Positions 27,001-51,000 of a DNA stretch of 64,000 nt are shown here, piece after piece. Made by a program: the position numbers. Numbering within the stretch: the first letter of the stretch is position 1; every line of letters starts with the position of its first letter. Source of the DNA: an uncultured bacterium (GTDB lineage Bacteria > Oederibacteriota > PGYV01 > CAWJRG01); NCBI GenBank assembly GCA_963845185.1, contig CAWJRG010000009.1:448001-512000 (forward strand), written 5' to 3'.

Positions 27001-30000
27001 GTATAACAAGATACTTAAAAGAATCGAAATGTCGCTATCATTTATACTTGCCTTTATTATGTATATAATATCTTATTTAGAGTTTTATTTTCTTGCTGAA
27101 AAAGGATATTGGCTTTATGATGCAAATATTGAGTGGACTTATTTATTTGGATTATTCTTCTTTTTTTTGTTCGGAACAGGAGAACTTTTTTTTATAAATA
27201 AGTTTTCAGAATCGCAGAAAATTTTTGGATTTTCACTTTTTATTGTTCATCTTTGGTCGGGTTTAGTTTATTTAAAACTATTACTTTCTGCGAATGGATT
27301 ATTATGTTTTATTTAATCGTTAAGTATTACAAGAAAGCTAAATATTAACTAGATTTAAGAGTTATTAAACAATCACTGGATATAATGGCTTTATCACGTG
27401 ACGAATGTGAGGTATATATAATATGATGAATGGGGTAGTAATAGTCGTATAAGCAGGCAAAATAAGGCTATTCATATTTAATCCCGATCCGCGAAAATCC
27501 TTATCGGTCGGCCGCCGCAGTAGAGCTGTTATGACGGAGGAGACTAGAGGCGGGGCTAGGAAGATATTCCGATGGAATATCTGACCGCTCCGGGGATGGA
27601 GCATATTATTATTTATTCAGCAAGTACTCCACGCTAATTTTGTACGGGGAAAATACATTTTGTATCAAAAATGATACTATCTTAATGCCTGAATCGACGC
27701 AAAATATTTCCGGATTTTTATAAGTGAGCAATATGCTTTTAATTTAAGCCCATATTATTCAGCTTGTTTGTGGACTTTTATATTATAAAAGTTTTTTGAT
27801 GGTTATAAATGTCATTGCGGCACGGTAAATGCTTTTATATGTTAATAGAGAAGTAATGTTCTTTTAACTTGGAATTAAATGAAAAGCTAATCCACCTATT
27901 TTGGCTGGCATGCCTCTTCATTGGTTGAGTTTAATATACCGGTGGGATGTTTAACGGGTAGAAGTCATCCTGATACTGCAAAATATGCCTTTCGTACCCA
28001 AAGGTAGGTGAGGGGAGTTTGATTAATCAGGTAGCTTTACCCGGCTGGCTTCTATATATATATGATAGGGAGCTCCAGAAGTTGTCCCTGCAGGCACATT
28101 ATTTGCCAAGTGCTTAGACTGTTTGGCAGGTAATTGGAAGGATTTTTGACAGATTAATGAAAAATAGGTCTTGACAGATTCAAGGTAATTTTGTAAACTC
28201 TTAACATTGGTAGTTTTGGAAGAAACTCTGATTTCATAGGAGCGGGAAATACCCAGTTATATTCAAGTTGTAGAGAATAGTCTTGTCTTTATTTAGGAGG
28301 ATATTTTTGTCTTTAACGACTGATTTGACATTGATAAAAAGCAGAGCGAAGAATAAAAAGGGGAAAATAACCGGCATTATTACTTTTGCAATTATAATTT
28401 TTCTTTCATTTTTACCCCTCCATATTTTTGCTGCCATTACAGAAGGCGGTCAAGCCAGCGGAACTGGTACTGGAACTGTCAATATTGGCTATACAGTCAG
28501 TACTAATGACAATAGGATATTGATAGTTTCAGTAGGCGTAATGAATGGCTCTGCGGGGGATCACATAAACACTGTCACATATAATGGGACTGCTTTAACC
28601 TTTTTAAATAGAATAGTGTCGAATGCCACACTTGCTGGCATTGATGGAGAAATTTGGTACATGTTAAATCCTCCAAGTGGAGGGCCATACAATGTGATTG
28701 TAACAGATCTTGTCGTTACCGGTGGTCCGAGAATTGTCGCGGGTGTAACAGAATATGACGGGGTAGTTGGAATAGGCAATAATGCGTTTAAAAACACGAA
28801 CGCTATTACTAATACATTAACGGATACTCTTGCTATTCAATACGCAGGGGACTTGATTACAGGTATTTTTTCTATGAGAAATGGTACCACGCCTATTACA
28901 TTCACAACTCCGGCTGGCAATAATTTAGAGTGGAATATAACATCCGCAGCAGGGTTTATAGCTGGCTCCGAATATGATATAGATGAAGCCAATCCCGGGA
29001 CATATTCTACAATTTATACTTCATCAAATGTAACCAATTGGTGCGTAGCGGGTGAGGTCGAATTATTAAATCCAACACCGACACCAACATGGACGCCGAC
29101 AAATACACCAACATGGACGCCGACAAATACGCCGAATTTGACACAAACCGAAGCTGCTACTGAGACACAGGTGGCAGAGACAGCGACCGAGCAGGCGCAG
29201 GAAACAGAAACTGCGGCAATGCAGCAGACACAGACAGAAATGGCAAACGAGACAGCGACAGCTGCAGTACAACAGACGCAGACTGAGGTAGTGCAGGAGA
29301 CAGCGACAGCTGCAGTACAACAGACGCAGACAGAGGCAGCGAATGAAACAGCCACAGCAATCATACAAGTTACACAGACAGAAATAGCGCAGGAAACAGC
29401 AACAGCAGCAGTGCAGCAGACACAGACTGAGGTAGCACAGGAGACAGTGACAGCTGCAGTACAACAGACGCAGACAGAGGCAGCAAATGAAACAGCGACA
29501 GCAATCATACAAGTTACGCAAACAGAAATAGCAAACGAGACAGCAACGGCTGCGGTACAACAGACGCAGACTGAGGAAGCAAACGAGACGGCGACAGCAG
29601 CAGTACAGCAGACGCAGACCGAGGTAGCGCAGGAGATAGCGACAGCTGCAATTCAGCAGACGCAGACCGAGGTAGCGCAGGAGACAGCGATAGCAGCGGT
29701 GCAGCAGACGCAGACCGAGGTAGCGCAGGAGACAGCGATAGCAGCGGTGCAGCAGACGCAGACCGAAATAGCGCAGGAGACAGCAACAGCTGCAGCAGTA
29801 GCAACACAGACAGAAGTGGCGCAGGAAACAGCAACAGTAGCAGTGCAGCAGACACAGACAGAAGTAGCGCAGGAAACAGCAACAGCAGCAGTACAGCAGA
29901 CACAAACAGAAGTAGTACAGGAGACAGCAACAGCGGCAGTGCAACAGACACAGACAGCCGTGGTACAAGCAACTGAGACAGCCGTGGCGGGTCCGCTGAT

Positions 30001-48000: not shown

Positions 48001-51000
48001 TGAAACCCAGACATGCACGGCTACAGGGACGCCGACGTACACAGTTACCATGACTTATACAAACACGCCGGTGAATACAGCAACAGACACACCGGTGAAT
48101 ACAGCGACTAACACGCCAATAGATACGGCGACAGACACTTATACTGTTACAGCGACAGACACGGTGACATCAACCATTACACAGACGACAACCATAACGC
48201 TGACATCAACCATAACAAGCACGTTCACGGCGACACCGCTTGTAACCGATACGCCTACGCCGCCTGTAACGTCCGGGTCCATAGCATACCCGCAGCCTGC
48301 CGCGAATACAATCACATTTGCGTATAACCTTCCAACGCCGTCAAGCGTAAAGATATATGTGTACAACCTGATAGGAGTTGAGGTGGCAGTTTTTGAAGGT
48401 GCTCCGGGCAATAACCCTGCAACTGTAACATGCGACATAAGCAAATTCGCGCCGGGGATGTATTTCTACATAATAAAAGCGCCTGACATAGGCGTGAAGT
48501 TCGCAGTAAATAAATTTGAAGTGGAAAAATAGGAGGCAGCCATGAAAAAGACATTAATTGTAATTGCAATGACGGTTCTCGCGGCAGCTTCCTCTTTTGC
48601 CGCGGTAAATGACAGCGCTTCAATAATGTTCCCGATGCTTGACATGGGCGTGGGCGCGAGGGCGCTCGGAATGGGCGAGGCTTACACGGCCGTTGCCAGC
48701 GACGCCAGCGCCATATACTGGAACGCGGCCGGGCTTGGGAACCTGAAGAACATACAGCTGGGGCTTACGTACGACAAGTGGTTTATGGATACCTACTTCA
48801 GCCAGATATTATTTGCATGCCCGCTTCCCCAGGGCACAATAGGCGCGGACATTGTTTACCTGAGCCTTGGCTCGCTGCAGGGCAGGGACAGCTCAGGAGC
48901 AACTACCAGGGACTATAACCCTTATAACATGGGAGGCAGCCTGGCATACGGCGTCAACCTGGGCGATGTTTCAGCCGGATTGACCCTGGAAATGCTGAGC
49001 CAGTCCACGGGGACGCTTACCAGCATGGGCCTGGGAGCGAATGCAGGCGTTTTATACACAAAAGGCATTTTTTCAGCCGGGCTTAATATCCAGAATATAG
49101 GTAACTCGAGCAGCGGAAGCGGATACACCCTGCCGACTAATATAAGGGCAGGCGTTGCCCTGAAACTGCTGGATACAACCCAGAACAGCCTGCTTGCCGC
49201 GCTTGACACGCAGTATCTTTTCAATGACGCAGATTATATGAGCCTGGGCGCGGAATATGTTTATGACCAGACGCTTGCGCTGAGGGTCGGATACAAAATG
49301 GGGCTCAAGCAGACAGACCTTGAAGGCATGATAGGGATAAGCGGTGGCGTAGGGTTAAAACTGGCAAATCTGAGCATCGATTACGCGATAGTACCGTACG
49401 GGGACCTTGGCACAACCCAGTGGATGATGCTGACATACGCTTTCGGCAACCAGCCGGCAGCAAAGCCGGCAGAGACAGCTGCGCCGGAAAAGGCAAAGCA
49501 AACAGCAAATATTGCCCCTGCGGGGTATAATAATAAAGTTGACCTCCTCAGCGAGGGCATGAAACTTGAAAAACAGGGCAAGATTAAAACGGCAATGCTC
49601 AAGTACAGCCAGGCAGTTACAGTTGACGGCAAAAACGCAGAAGCATGGAAGCGCCTCGGATATTTATATAAAAGCCAGGGGGACAAAGCCAATGCCGTCG
49701 CATGCCTTGAGACCTATTTAAAGCTCAAACCTACGGACAAGAAAACAGCGGCAATGCTGAAAAAATACAAAAAACAAAAAGCCAAGGCGGCAAAATAGCT
49801 TATTTAATCCCACACGGGAAATTTTTCTTCATAATTTTTTTCATGCCAACCACGATGATTACACAAAACCTGTTTGAATTTAAAACCCGTTGTGCTATCA
49901 TTATTTAAACCCTGACGAATCCACAGACTTTAGCCGGTTGTCGGGCGAATGTCCTGTACACTTTGTTGACCACTAACAAAGTTGGTAGTCTCCTCTCCCT
50001 CGACGGGAGAGGAAAAAGGAGAGGGTGAAGCAGCAGCAATAACTATTTAAATTAAGATAAAAGATAGAATGCGAAATAAGGGAAAGAGGTTTTGAATTCT
50101 AGCGTTGGCGTGAAGTAACATTGAATCAGCTGCTACCTCACCCTCATCCCGGCCTTCCCCCGTCGAGGGGGAAGGGGAAGTTTTTGAATCCTCCGATGAA
50201 CAGACTGTGTCATAATGTTTTTGTAGTCTGAAACGATATTTGACAGATAAAAAATGGTATAATGTCTCCAGAAAACACATCAGAAAAGGAGACAAAAATG
50301 GCATACCGATATGGAGACCGAAGTCAGTTGACAATGTTTCCGCAGAGCATAGAAGAATATGTAGGGGAAGATGATCCTGTAAGGGCGTACGACGCGTTCG
50401 TAAAGGCGTTGAAAATGGAAGAACTTGGGATAGTAATAGATGAAACGCAAATGGGAAATTCGGAATACGACCCTGAGGCTATGATAAAATTGCTGGTATA
50501 CGGATATTCATACGGGACACGAAGTTCGAGAAAACTGGAAAGAGCGACGCATCATAATGTGTCTTTTATGTGGCTGCTGGGAGGATTGAAGCCGGATCAT
50601 AAAACAATAGCAAGGTTTCGAAAAGACAACCGGGAAATGTTGAAAAACGTGATGAAACAAAGCGCAAAGATGTGTATGAAACTGGGATTGATAGAAGGAA
50701 ACACGCTATTTGTAGACGGGAGCAAGATAAGGGCGAACGCGTCGATAAATAACACATGGACAATGGAGCGGTGTGAAAAAAGGATAAAGAAGATAGAAGA
50801 AAACATAGAAGCGATAATAAAGGAGAGCGAAAAGATAGACGAGGAAGAAAGCGGCGCTGAATCACTGGTAAAGATGAAGGAAAAATTAAGAGGCAAAGAG
50901 AAATTAAAAGCAAAGATAAAAGAGGTAATGGAAGAAATAAGGAACGAGGGGAAAAAGTCGATAAATACGACAGACAAGGAATGCGTGAAAGTAAAAGGGC

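Follow-up and report, generated by a model that had tools for sequence, protein, structure and literature searches.

PorV/PorQ-family barrels and the type A-like CTD genes in front of them form linked, co-diversifying units in an uncultured bacterium

The genome studied here holds 37 outer-membrane barrel loci of the PorV/PorQ family, many of them encoded directly behind a gene for a protein with a type A C-terminal sorting domain (CTD). This adjacency is non-random and is conserved across the phylum, and a barrel and its adjoining CTD behave as a linked, co-diversifying unit. We give about even odds (probability near 0.5) to the explanation that the barrels act in the outer membrane as class-specific receptors of type A-like CTDs and hold the cargo.

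The window, which is the whole stretch of 64,000 nucleotides analysed, carries two such modules:

6680..12649, + strand: 1989-aa paralogue of the giant protein, gene 1 of the duplicated module 1 (aligned at 64% identity across 1052 aa; no Pfam family)
12671..14755, + strand: 694-aa CTD protein of module 1 (CTD match at 14507-14707; Laminin_G_3 insert)
14739..16016, + strand: 425-aa PorV/PorQ-family barrel with TPR, module 1 (NF033709, 153.3 bits)
28283..47071, + strand: giant repetitive surface-fibre-like protein, 6262 aa from TTG, gene 1 of module 2 (open reading frame)
47093..48532, + strand: 479-aa secreted protein of module 2 (CTD match at 48287-48484; PF18962, TIGR04183)
48542..49798, + strand: 418-aa PorV/PorQ-family barrel with C-terminal TPR, module 2 (NF033709, 159.4 bits)
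50153..50175, + strand: terminator-like hairpin of 9 pairs (7 GC), 3' of the 418-aa barrel gene (from a hairpin scan whose number of sites is at chance level)

Module 2 (g01545-g01546-g01547) is organized as a preliminary description had it, with a giant, a CTD protein and a PorV-family barrel bearing TPR all on the + strand; the 6254 aa given there for the giant hold for its start at 28307, and the TTG at 28283 yields 6262 aa. The giant is rich in Thr (17.7%), Ala (15.3%), Gln and Val and begins with a hydrophobic signal-like segment. It has no CTD match with a CTD profile built from this genome, Pfam gives low-complexity matches only, and three internal units of ~680 aa resemble the 1989-aa paralogue at 64-65% identity. 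The 479-aa protein consists of a signal peptide, an N-terminal domain of ~280 aa, a Thr-rich linker and a type A CTD (29.2 bits with PF18962, cut-off 27; 26.8 bits with TIGR04183, cut-off 23), and over its first 277 aa it matches the module-1 paralogue at 93% identity. Starting 9 nt behind this gene, the 418-aa barrel gene encodes the barrel match at 48629-49444 and a TPR domain at about 49571-49762 (TPR_1 at residues 366-399). No + strand terminator-like site separates the three module-2 genes in the scan, in which the site count is at chance level. The second module announced earlier (g01535-g01537) was indeed found at 6680-16016; the CTD of its 694-aa protein scores 29.5 bits with TIGR04183 and 29.1 bits with PF18962, and its 425-aa barrel is 77% identical to the 418-aa one.

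A genome-wide search with the NCBIfam PorV/PorQ family profile NF033709 gave 40 matches at the 37 loci, 29 of which pass the curated whole-protein cut-off of 90 bits while the other 8 score 36-85 bits, in line with the 29 annotated and about 37 total barrels counted before. The barrels are as divergent as had been proposed (median pairwise identity 26.1% over the 406 pairs of the 29 above-cut-off barrels, for a claimed 27%), with 5 rather than 8 pairs exceeding 50%. None of the 37 reaches the equivalog models for PorV (NF033710, cut-off 250 bits; best 89.0 bits, L001) or PorQ (NF033711, cut-off 220 bits; best 128.5 bits, again L001), nor the PorV2 model (cut-off 325 bits; best 79.8 bits). The PorQ model outscores the PorV model for most of them, including the 418-aa barrel (90.9 versus 72.3 bits, each below cut-off). 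With the PorP/SprF model TIGR03519 the genome gave no match, as did the control genomes, and PF11751 gave a single match of 18.1 bits, below its 22.3 cut-off, within the 418-aa barrel. By their NF033709 scores the loci belong to the PorV/PorQ family, and they display five different fused-domain architectures, the C-terminal fusions being TPR (n = 10), Ig-like plus OmpA (n = 5), fn3 (n = 2) and FlgD_ig-like (n = 4).

In the AF2 model of the 418-aa barrel, the one barrel modelled (pLDDT 91.5, pTM 0.86), some 272 residues make up a plugged barrel of the FadL/PorV type that carries a helical segment at the N-terminus, and by this prediction the window's barrel has a PorV-like fold. Its top Foldseek matches are the PorV chains 8gl6_F (E 1.1e-13, TMq 0.85) and 6h3i_F (TMq 0.84) from F. 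johnsoniae SprA-PorV-substrate translocon structures, followed by FadL (TMq about 0.6-0.7), TodX and TbuX. These next-best folds, together with weak Pfam Toluene_X/FadL matches in several barrels, could be taken to mean that the barrels take up small hydrophobic compounds as FadL-like channels and lie beside surface proteins by which such compounds are captured or released. We regard this as highly improbable: PorV chains fit clearly better (0.85 versus about 0.65 for FadL), the proteins encoded next to the barrels are for the most part adhesin-like or giant repeat proteins and not enzymes, and the link goes with the CTD and not with the passenger domain.

Measured with TIGR04183, the same-strand upstream neighbour carries a type A CTD for 18 of the 37 barrels (15 of the 29), at 23 bits or more in 16 cases, and exactly one CTD gene precedes each of the 18; 10,000 random draws of 37 genes gave a mean of 1.03 and a maximum of 6. 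The genome's own profile, built from 98 of its CTDs and finding 155 CTD genes in total, places a CTD gene directly upstream of 24/37 barrels (random mean 1.62, maximum 8), and 22 of these 24 upstream genes, all except those of L001 and L017, were in its training set. The proposed 20 of 29 barrels behind a secreted-protein gene are recovered in this count, while 4 rather than 5 of the 8 sub-threshold barrels are so placed. Gaps between the paired genes run from -17 to 265 nt, leaving aside one value of -127 that hinges on the start chosen. All 22 upstream C-termini that were aligned share the type A pattern (PNP, I.IY..G, G.Y.Y.I and a K..V.K/R end), and CHU_C (PF13585) matches some cargo ends at 30-36 bits (L015, L023, L031 and L032). 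The type B model TIGR04131 (cut-off 35 bits) gave five weak matches of 18-27.5 bits, none over the cut-off; four of them fall within genes of OmpA-type barrels, and no cargo C-terminus was hit.

Pairing is far from complete. For twelve of the 37 barrels, the roughly 560 nt upstream hold no CTD gene (13 if strict adjacency is required), and the upstream neighbours of unpaired barrels include dnaA (divergent), purH and genes for a malK-like ABC ATPase, a lacI-family regulator and RNase R. Conversely, 131 of the 155 CTD genes found with the genome's own profile have no barrel behind them.

To what extent barrel and CTD diversify together can be read from their paralogues. In 12 of the 22 modules compared, barrel and CTD point to the same module as the home of their closest paralogue (10,000 permutations: mean 1.03, maximum 8), and in 5 of 17 once recent duplicates are collapsed (P = 0.005); such agreement can also arise by co-duplication of neighbours without binding specificity. 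The barrels of L005 and L008 are 80% identical and their otherwise unrelated cargos are alike only in the last ~180 aa, and those of L010 and L024 are 57% identical with otherwise unrelated cargos alike only in the last 96 aa. Over the whole matrix, barrel and CTD identity correlate weakly (Mantel rho 0.13, P = 0.08; rho 0.06, P = 0.27 without recent duplicates). CTD similarity follows the predicted interface columns of the barrel with a rho of 0.29 and the other columns with 0.17; since the former value is reached by 15% of column sets drawn at random outside the interface, and by 39% when the sets are matched for variability, there is no interface-specific signal.

The earlier proposal of cargo-dedicated barrels is supported as far as a linked, co-diversifying barrel/CTD unit is concerned; as worded, with every paralogue private in place of one universal PorV, it is not supported. 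A CTD 68-100% identical to that of L005 is borne by 16 cargos, an OmpA-type barrel lies behind only 2 of these, and the genome has at most five OmpA-fused barrels for this tail class. From the unpaired barrels, the barrel-less CTD genes and the 16-cargo tail class, matching looks class-to-class, some classes being exclusive cis pairs and others one-to-many. The placement of most barrels behind a gene whose CTD diversified with them suggests many parallel barrel-defined sorting or anchoring routes instead of one universal carrier.

As far as its kinship shows, the host lineage lies outside the Bacteroidota. In each of 41 genomes sampled across its order and phylum we detected 8-40 barrel matches. 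One relative (G027) has 16 of its 35 barrels directly behind one of 41 CTD hits (0.15 expected), and in another (G036) a CTD gene is directly upstream of 5/18 barrels. At 23 of 28 loci in relatives with barrels 28-54% identical to the window's, a CTD gene ends just upstream, and 22 of these 23 CTDs find their best match among five same-class CTDs of the 98 from our genome; judged from these sequence matches, the TPR-barrel class keeps its own CTD class throughout the phylum. OmpA-type barrels in relatives have a CTD gene upstream at 3/26 loci and are unpaired at 23/26.

Adjacency could nonetheless reflect co-expression only, with the barrels acting as interchangeable general CTD carriers that were multiplied for dosage among cargo operons. 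Besides the lack of interface-specific covariation, paired and unpaired CTDs have similar TIGR04183 scores (median 28 bits for the former and 31 bits for the latter, P = 0.085), as this explanation would have it. It is nevertheless improbable, because a median identity of 26% and five fused-domain architectures are unlike dosage copies, the "paired" label is clustered on the CTD tree (13 changes, whereas 1000 shuffles average 20.3 and never go below 14), all relatives of TPR-class CTDs within the genome are paired ones, and the class linkage persists across the phylum down to 28% barrel identity.

A complex model of one pair, the 418-aa barrel with its neighbour's CTD, supports a CTD-barrel contact: the CTD is predicted to sit on one face of the barrel with an ipSAE of 0.81, against 0.02 for the best of three controls, at least 85% of contacts agree between runs and the partner pLDDT is at least 85. 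Among solved complexes 116 of 157 come up to this mark, among mismatched pairs 2 of 215; the score can stem from resemblance to 8gl6, a solved PorV-CTD complex, and is silent on cognate versus non-cognate pairing.

As for the secretion machinery, the SprA-like candidate is a 2145-aa protein without a Pfam name, in which four collinear TIGR04189 hits (69, 56, 43 and 29 bits) each stay below the 200-bit cut-off. The GldM model finds no match in the genome or in the control genomes, and GldK gives only matches of 28-45 bits to its FGE-like part (cut-off 350). One might conclude that every cargo-barrel pair suffices for its own export, the barrel by itself or with its periplasmic domain carrying the neighbour across or onto the outer membrane and no Bacteroidota-type T9SS machine being needed, given the sub-threshold SprA, the FGE-type GldK and the absence of GldM and PorP/SprF matches, the latter two models being silent in the control genomes too. 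This seems quite improbable to us, as a plugged barrel of the predicted size offers no evident path for cargos of up to 4184 aa and 131 CTD proteins would have to do without a barrel of their own.

If the barrels are instead receptors, cargo would be exported through the divergent SprA-like translocon, on which it would depend, and its CTD would then dock on the long-loop, presumably extracellular face either of the barrel whose gene follows the cargo gene or of another barrel of matching class, in a physical contact of the kind predicted by the model. The cargo would stay there rather than pass on, in analogy to PorZ on PorQ, PorU on PorV and type B cargos on PorP/SprF-like barrels. The C-terminal fused domains, probably located in the periplasm, would determine what becomes of the complex: a fused OmpA domain would tether it to peptidoglycan, and a fused TPR domain would dock it to a partner in the periplasm. 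A separate protein, PorE, does this tethering and docking in Bacteroidota.

Retention has to be weighed against barrels that are transient shuttles only. Each would then collect cargo of its class from the translocon, as PorV does in Bacteroidota, before a C25-type peptidase removes the CTD and the cargo is set free or fixed at another site. The nearest fold is that of PorV in a substrate-bound translocon, and a passage of PMC12618676 indicates that secretion itself needs SprF-like shuttles. Moreover, a 1657-aa protein carries Peptidase_C25 (129 bits) together with its own CTD, so PorU-like CTD cleavage may occur, which would favour transient shuttling over retention. However, this protein also bears a CBM_3 domain and does not reach a PorU-equivalog score; the PorU model NF033707 matches almost only through its CTD part, with one weak match of 30.7 bits. 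A barrel fused to peptidoglycan-binding OmpA, as at five loci, better suits a fixed anchor than a mobile shuttle, and most barrels favour the model of PorQ, which part of PMC10202324 presents as the PorZ anchor. On balance, we hold transient shuttling alone to be rather unlikely.

PorV is the universal shuttle of type A CTD cargos in F. johnsoniae. It is the best structural match of the window's barrel, and a CTD is likewise modelled on one barrel face, whereas the type A-like CTDs here form classes that travel with different barrels. Comparable in organization are the PorP/SprF type B systems, among them the PorP-PorE-PG1035 and SprF-SprB complexes described in sections of PMC9143113, and the cognate SprF-like shuttles described in sections of PMC12618676, along with operons that combine a shuttle with a type B substrate and a PorE homologue. 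According to the same sections of the two papers, the barrel gene adjoins the cargo gene (SprF-SprB, Fjoh_3951-Fjoh_3952-PorE homologue, PorP-PorE-PG1035) and the peptidoglycan-binding partner PorE can fix the complex, and those of PMC12618676 describe barrel-CTD pairing as cognate, though some crosstalk occurs, and an orphan shuttle able to serve more than one CTD. In contrast to these systems, the barrels here are of the PorV/PorQ family and the CTDs of type A pattern, TPR or OmpA is fused onto the barrel instead of being placed on a separate PorE (whose domains are listed in an excerpt of PMC12773672 as TPR, propeller, CRD and OmpA_C), and 24 cis pairs in this 3.5-Mb genome compare with 12 type B substrates in F. 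johnsoniae. In the P. gingivalis attachment complex, a PorV-family barrel (PorQ or PorV) permanently holds one uncleaved-CTD protein (PorZ or PorU), and "cognate PorV-like beta-barrels" are hypothesized for PorZ/PorQ, both as stated in parts of PMC10202324; here a varied set of adhesin-like or giant proteins takes the partner role, and pairs are about ten-fold more numerous. We read the system as a variant of the cognate pairing of barrel and cargo already known from PorQ-PorZ and from PorP/SprF with type B cargos.

For the phylum, we tentatively propose, at somewhat less than even odds, that type A-like CTD sorting is split over many barrel-defined routes, in which each CTD class may be read by its own PorV/PorQ-family barrel, some pairs being exclusive and cis-encoded and other classes many-cargo, in which the fused domain (TPR, OmpA, Ig or fn3) would decide the destination of the cargo, and which may use an SprA-like pore without the PorKLMN motor. 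If this is true, roughly 20 matched pairs per genome in 60 or more genomes would provide a training set for the CTD-barrel recognition code.

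Three co-directional genes take up window 28283-49798 (module 2), and a paralogue of the whole three-gene unit (module 1) is encoded on the same strand. The features of the window are as follows, with CTD denoting the C-terminal sorting domain of type IX secretion (T9SS) and every gene on the + strand:

Within 385-2373 and 56113-60915, +, two NiFe-hydrogenase large-subunit genes, a HycI-type maturation protease gene and NuoF/NuoG-like genes
6680-16016, +, module 1, encoding proteins of 1989, 694 and 425 aa
16449-18593, 18565-20898 and 23524-25809, +, three paralogous proteins with PMT_2 and C-terminal PA14 domains, between modules 1 and 2
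28283-47071, +, giant protein of 6262 aa, first gene of module 2
Starting 21 nt past the giant gene, +, 479-aa CTD protein with signal peptide, 280-aa N-terminal domain, Thr-rich linker and type A CTD
Starting 9 nt past the 479-aa gene, +, 418-aa PorV/PorQ-family barrel with C-terminal TPR domain
50262-51722, +, IS1182-family transposase (NF033551, 367.8 bits), directly behind module 2
51888-52508 and 52853-55249, +, methionine synthase divided between two genes whose order is reversed (206-aa and 798-aa pieces)

The 418-aa barrel scores 159.4 bits with NF033709 (cut-off 90) and is 77% identical to the 425-aa barrel of module 1, while the CTD of its 479-aa neighbour is matched by PF18962 (29.2 bits) and TIGR04183 (26.8 bits). 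The 6262-aa giant is rich in Thr (17.7%) and Ala (15.3%), carries a hydrophobic N-terminal segment and three internal units of ~680 aa, and has a ~90-aa unit in duplicate at its end; neither Pfam nor the genome's own CTD profile recognised a sorting domain in it, and the first genes of both modules (28283-47071 and 6680-12649, both +) lack a CTD. The N-terminal domain of the small CTD protein is 93% identical between the modules, and this conserved domain might hold the giants. The PMT_2 domain is protein O-mannosyltransferase-like, making the three PMT_2/PA14 proteins candidate glycosylators of the Thr-rich fibres and linkers. The 206-aa methionine synthase piece matches the activation domain (model positions 1122-1170) and the 798-aa piece covers positions 2-852 of 1182. 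No RNA holder is listed for window 46500-50000, and promoter and terminator scans gave site numbers at chance level.

The preliminary description had put 29 divergent PorV-family barrels in this genome, most of them behind one secreted-protein gene, and both numbers and adjacency hold: in the 3.50-Mb genome NF033709 matches 40 times, at 37 loci of which 29 lie above cut-off, with a median pairwise identity of 26% among the 29 (406 pairs, only 5 of them above 50%). The barrels are old paralogues. TIGR04183 matched 97 CTDs (84 at or above cut-off) in 94 of 2958 crude gene calls, and such a match was carried by the same-strand upstream neighbour of 18 of the 37 barrels (15 of the 29), compared to a mean of 1.03 and a maximum of 6 in 10,000 random draws of 37 genes. 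Each of these 18 barrels was preceded by exactly one CTD gene. With a lineage profile built from 98 CTDs of this genome, which finds 155 CTD genes, 24 of the 37 barrels (20 of the 29) lie directly behind a CTD gene (chance mean 1.6, maximum 8), and a 25th barrel, at locus L022, has one 558 nt upstream. In addition to the 18, four more upstream neighbours, those of the barrels at L007, L015, L020 and L030, end in FlgD_ig, CHU_C or PorU-tail-like domains, and all 22 aligned upstream C-termini show the type A pattern. Paired and unpaired CTD genes did not differ significantly in TIGR04183 score or length. At locus L035 (G000:C9:136588-137387) the barrel is spread across two reading frames, which points to a frameshift or a pseudogene, and another DDE transposase lies upstream of the tandem barrels L037/L026. 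We consider it improbable that this adjacency is generic co-expression, a reading to be weighed against the sequence relationships of barrels and tails described below.

Pfam analysis of the 37 barrels distinguished 14 that consist of the barrel only (11 of them paired with a CTD gene by the own profile), 10 with a TPR extension (9 paired), 5 in which an Ig-like or CHU_C-like domain is followed by OmpA (2 paired), 4 with a FlgD_ig-like domain (none paired), 2 with fn3 (1 paired) and 2 with an unnamed extension (other architectures, 1 of 2 paired). None of the 37 reached an equivalog cut-off (best scores 89 of 250 for PorV, 128.5 of 220 for PorQ and 79.8 of 325 for PorV2), and the PorQ score exceeded the PorV score for most of them. 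The structures closest to the confident AF2 model of the window's 418-aa barrel (pLDDT 91.5) are PorV chains from the translocon of F. johnsoniae, among them complex 8gl6 with its bound RemA CTD (TMq 0.85); FadL-type channels rank next. That the barrels are FadL-like uptake channels is hardly credible, and we rejected this reading since PorV fits the fold better and the genomic linkage runs to the CTD.

Complex prediction for one pair, the window's barrel (alignment A1) and the C-terminal 90 residues of its 479-aa neighbour (alignment A2), gave 0.81 versus 0.02 for the best of three controls, a mark that 116 of 157 solved complexes attain, as do 2 of 215 mismatched pairs. At least 85% of the contacts agreed between runs, and the pLDDT of the partner was at least 85. 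On the CTD side the predicted contacts involve conserved motifs, and on the barrel they fall in seven loop segments ~35-45 residues apart, long loops included, thus confining them to one barrel face, which we infer to be extracellular. This result perhaps reflects mere likeness and has no bearing on specificity, because a PorV-CTD complex is already solved (8gl6).

Several comparisons show that barrel and CTD move and diversify as a pair. The nearest paralogue of the barrel and that of the CTD lie in the same module for 12 of 22 modules (permutation mean 1.03, maximum 8 in 10,000), and after collapsing recent duplicates this agreement persists in 5 of 17 (P = 0.005). The barrels at L005 and L008 are 80% identical, and their cargos are unrelated save for the last ~180 residues (70% identical); those at L010 and L024 are 57% identical, with cargos alike only in the last 96 residues (42%). 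In the other three close barrel pairs larger cargo parts were duplicated along. At 23 of 28 loci sampled in relatives, with barrels sharing 28-54% identity with the window's, a CTD gene ends a few dozen nucleotides or less upstream, and 22 of these 23 CTDs find their best match, among the genome's 98, in the five CTDs of the TPR-barrel class (L002, L006, L009, L010 and L024). The CTDs of this class have no WDG motif, terminate in NKF.V.K and are without unpaired close relatives in the genome. The relatives' passengers upstream of window-class barrels are in part orthologous (L009-type) and in part alike only in Thr-rich linkers, and they gave no clean test of a swapped passenger. A whole-matrix Mantel comparison of barrel and CTD identity showed a weak correlation: for 18 modules rho was 0.13 (P = 0.08), for 22 modules 0.11 (P = 0.09), and with recent duplicates left out 0.06 (P = 0.27). 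At the predicted interface, covariation gave a partial rho of 0.24 (permutation P = 0.005), but this signal is not specific to the interface, since the raw rho is reached by 15% of random column sets from outside it and by 39% of sets with equal variability. Interface columns are also more variable than the rest (2.68 versus 2.31 bits, P = 0.02), which counts as no evidence because loops vary anyway.

The proposal that each paralogue is a private shuttle or anchor survives in part: barrel and tail co-diversify as a linked unit, but 12 of the 37 barrels (13 by strict adjacency) have no CTD gene within ~560 nt upstream and 131 of the 155 CTD genes found by the own profile have no barrel. The upstream neighbours of the uncoupled barrels include dnaA (divergent), purH, a malK-like gene, a lacI-family regulator gene and an RNase R gene. 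The cargo CTD of L005 recurs on 16 cargo genes at 68-100% identity, with an OmpA-type barrel behind only 2 of the 16. One such cluster surrounds L008:

G000:C6:112128-121640, cargo of 598 aa, OmpA-type barrel of 657 aa, then cargos of 416, 196 and 806 aa

Each of the four cargos ends in almost the same CTD, with 73-82% identity to that of L005, and three sit just downstream of the barrel. Of 26 usable loci with an OmpA-type barrel in relatives, only 3 show a CTD gene upstream. With 16 cargos sharing few barrels, at least one class is therefore one-to-many, resembling the orphan type B substrates of F. johnsoniae that use one SprF-like shuttle in common (PMC12618676). Paired CTDs cluster in the CTD tree (13 label changes versus 20.3 in shuffles), but for 12 of 22 paired CTDs the nearest relative is an unpaired one.

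Many cargo-linked barrels are a trait of the phylum and not peculiar to this genome. All 41 sampled genomes (this one, 23 from its order and 17 from its phylum) hold 8-40 matches at E <=1e-10; a first look at the 60 phylum genomes at least 90% complete gave 11-68 per genome, which are candidates and not match counts, the E-value being too strict. A single-barrel query against genome contigs found no relative. G027 is a single-contig genome from a different order; of its 35 barrel matches, 16 are located no more than 600 nt behind one of 41 CTD matches (0.15 expected). The same holds for 5 of 18 loci in G036, which comes from a family with fewer barrels and has 26 CTD matches. The top family-model score among this genome's barrels belongs to L001 (G000:C1:286027-290159), which follows a 991-aa F5/8-type-C protein whose CTD is visible only with the lineage profile (E 1e-9); the best matches in most sampled relatives are like L001 in size and score (180-209 bits), and the top-scoring barrel of G027 likewise follows a weak CTD match. 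L001 and its neighbour may be the core barrel-partner pair of the lineage.

For the rest of the secretion machinery, a 2145-aa protein has four collinear SprA matches, each sub-threshold, and GldK gave weak FGE-like matches only. The PorU model matches almost solely via its CTD part. One further protein combines Peptidase_C25 with a CTD:

G000:C5:17879-22852 (L068 1879-6852), strand -, 1657-aa protein with Peptidase_C25 (129 bits), CBM_3 and type A CTD

This protein is a candidate PorU-like enzyme or else a surface protease of the gingipain kind. Profiles found no member of PorP/SprF and no match for GldM, and the absence of PorP and GldM is not demonstrable because neither search gave a match in any control genome. 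It is quite improbable that a cargo-barrel pair forms a stand-alone export unit.

With a probability of about 0.5, we favour the reading that the barrels are class-specific receptors, in which the barrel of the matching class would hold the CTD of its cargo at the cell surface while the fused domains dock the complex in the periplasm. The C-terminus of the barrel is predicted to be periplasmic, so a fused TPR or OmpA domain would dock the complex to periplasmic partners or peptidoglycan. That the barrels are purely transient shuttles is the less likely, though still conceivable, reading of the same pairs. Receptors of this kind would follow the barrel-holds-CTD logic described for PorQ-PorZ and PorV-PorU and for complexes of a PorE homologue, type B substrate and SprF-like shuttle (PMC10202324, PMC9143113, PMC12618676). 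Here, however, PorV/PorQ-family barrels would act on type A-like tails, they are multiplied about ten-fold, and the PorE-like parts are fused into the barrel. According to PMC12618676, PorV recognises all type A CTDs, and barrel discrimination between CTDs is a stated open question for type B pairs; in the review PMC10202324, "cognate PorV-like beta-barrels" are raised as mere hypothesis for PorZ/PorQ and type B pairs.

A literature search covering few subscription journals returned type B/SprF work, PorQ-PorZ work and one review's hypothesis; it returned no PorV-family expansions tied to type A cargos, no type A cis pairs and nothing on secretion in this phylum. The novelty lies in the scale, the class structure and the fused domains. 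The T9SS models now in use are based on Bacteroidota, in which one PorV serves all type A signals and cognate PorP/SprF barrels exist only for type B signals, which are rarer than type A. If genomes of this phylum indeed hold 8-40 divergent barrels, most of them tied to one type A-like cargo, this Bacteroidota-based picture would change: cognate barrel-signal pairing would be a principle that applies generally in this secretion family and can be expanded, PorE-like anchoring functions could be fused into the barrel, and hundreds of natural cognate and non-cognate pairs would be at hand for learning how barrels discriminate between CTDs. The finding also bears on the surface display of giant fibres and adhesins by uncultured polymer-degrading bacteria.
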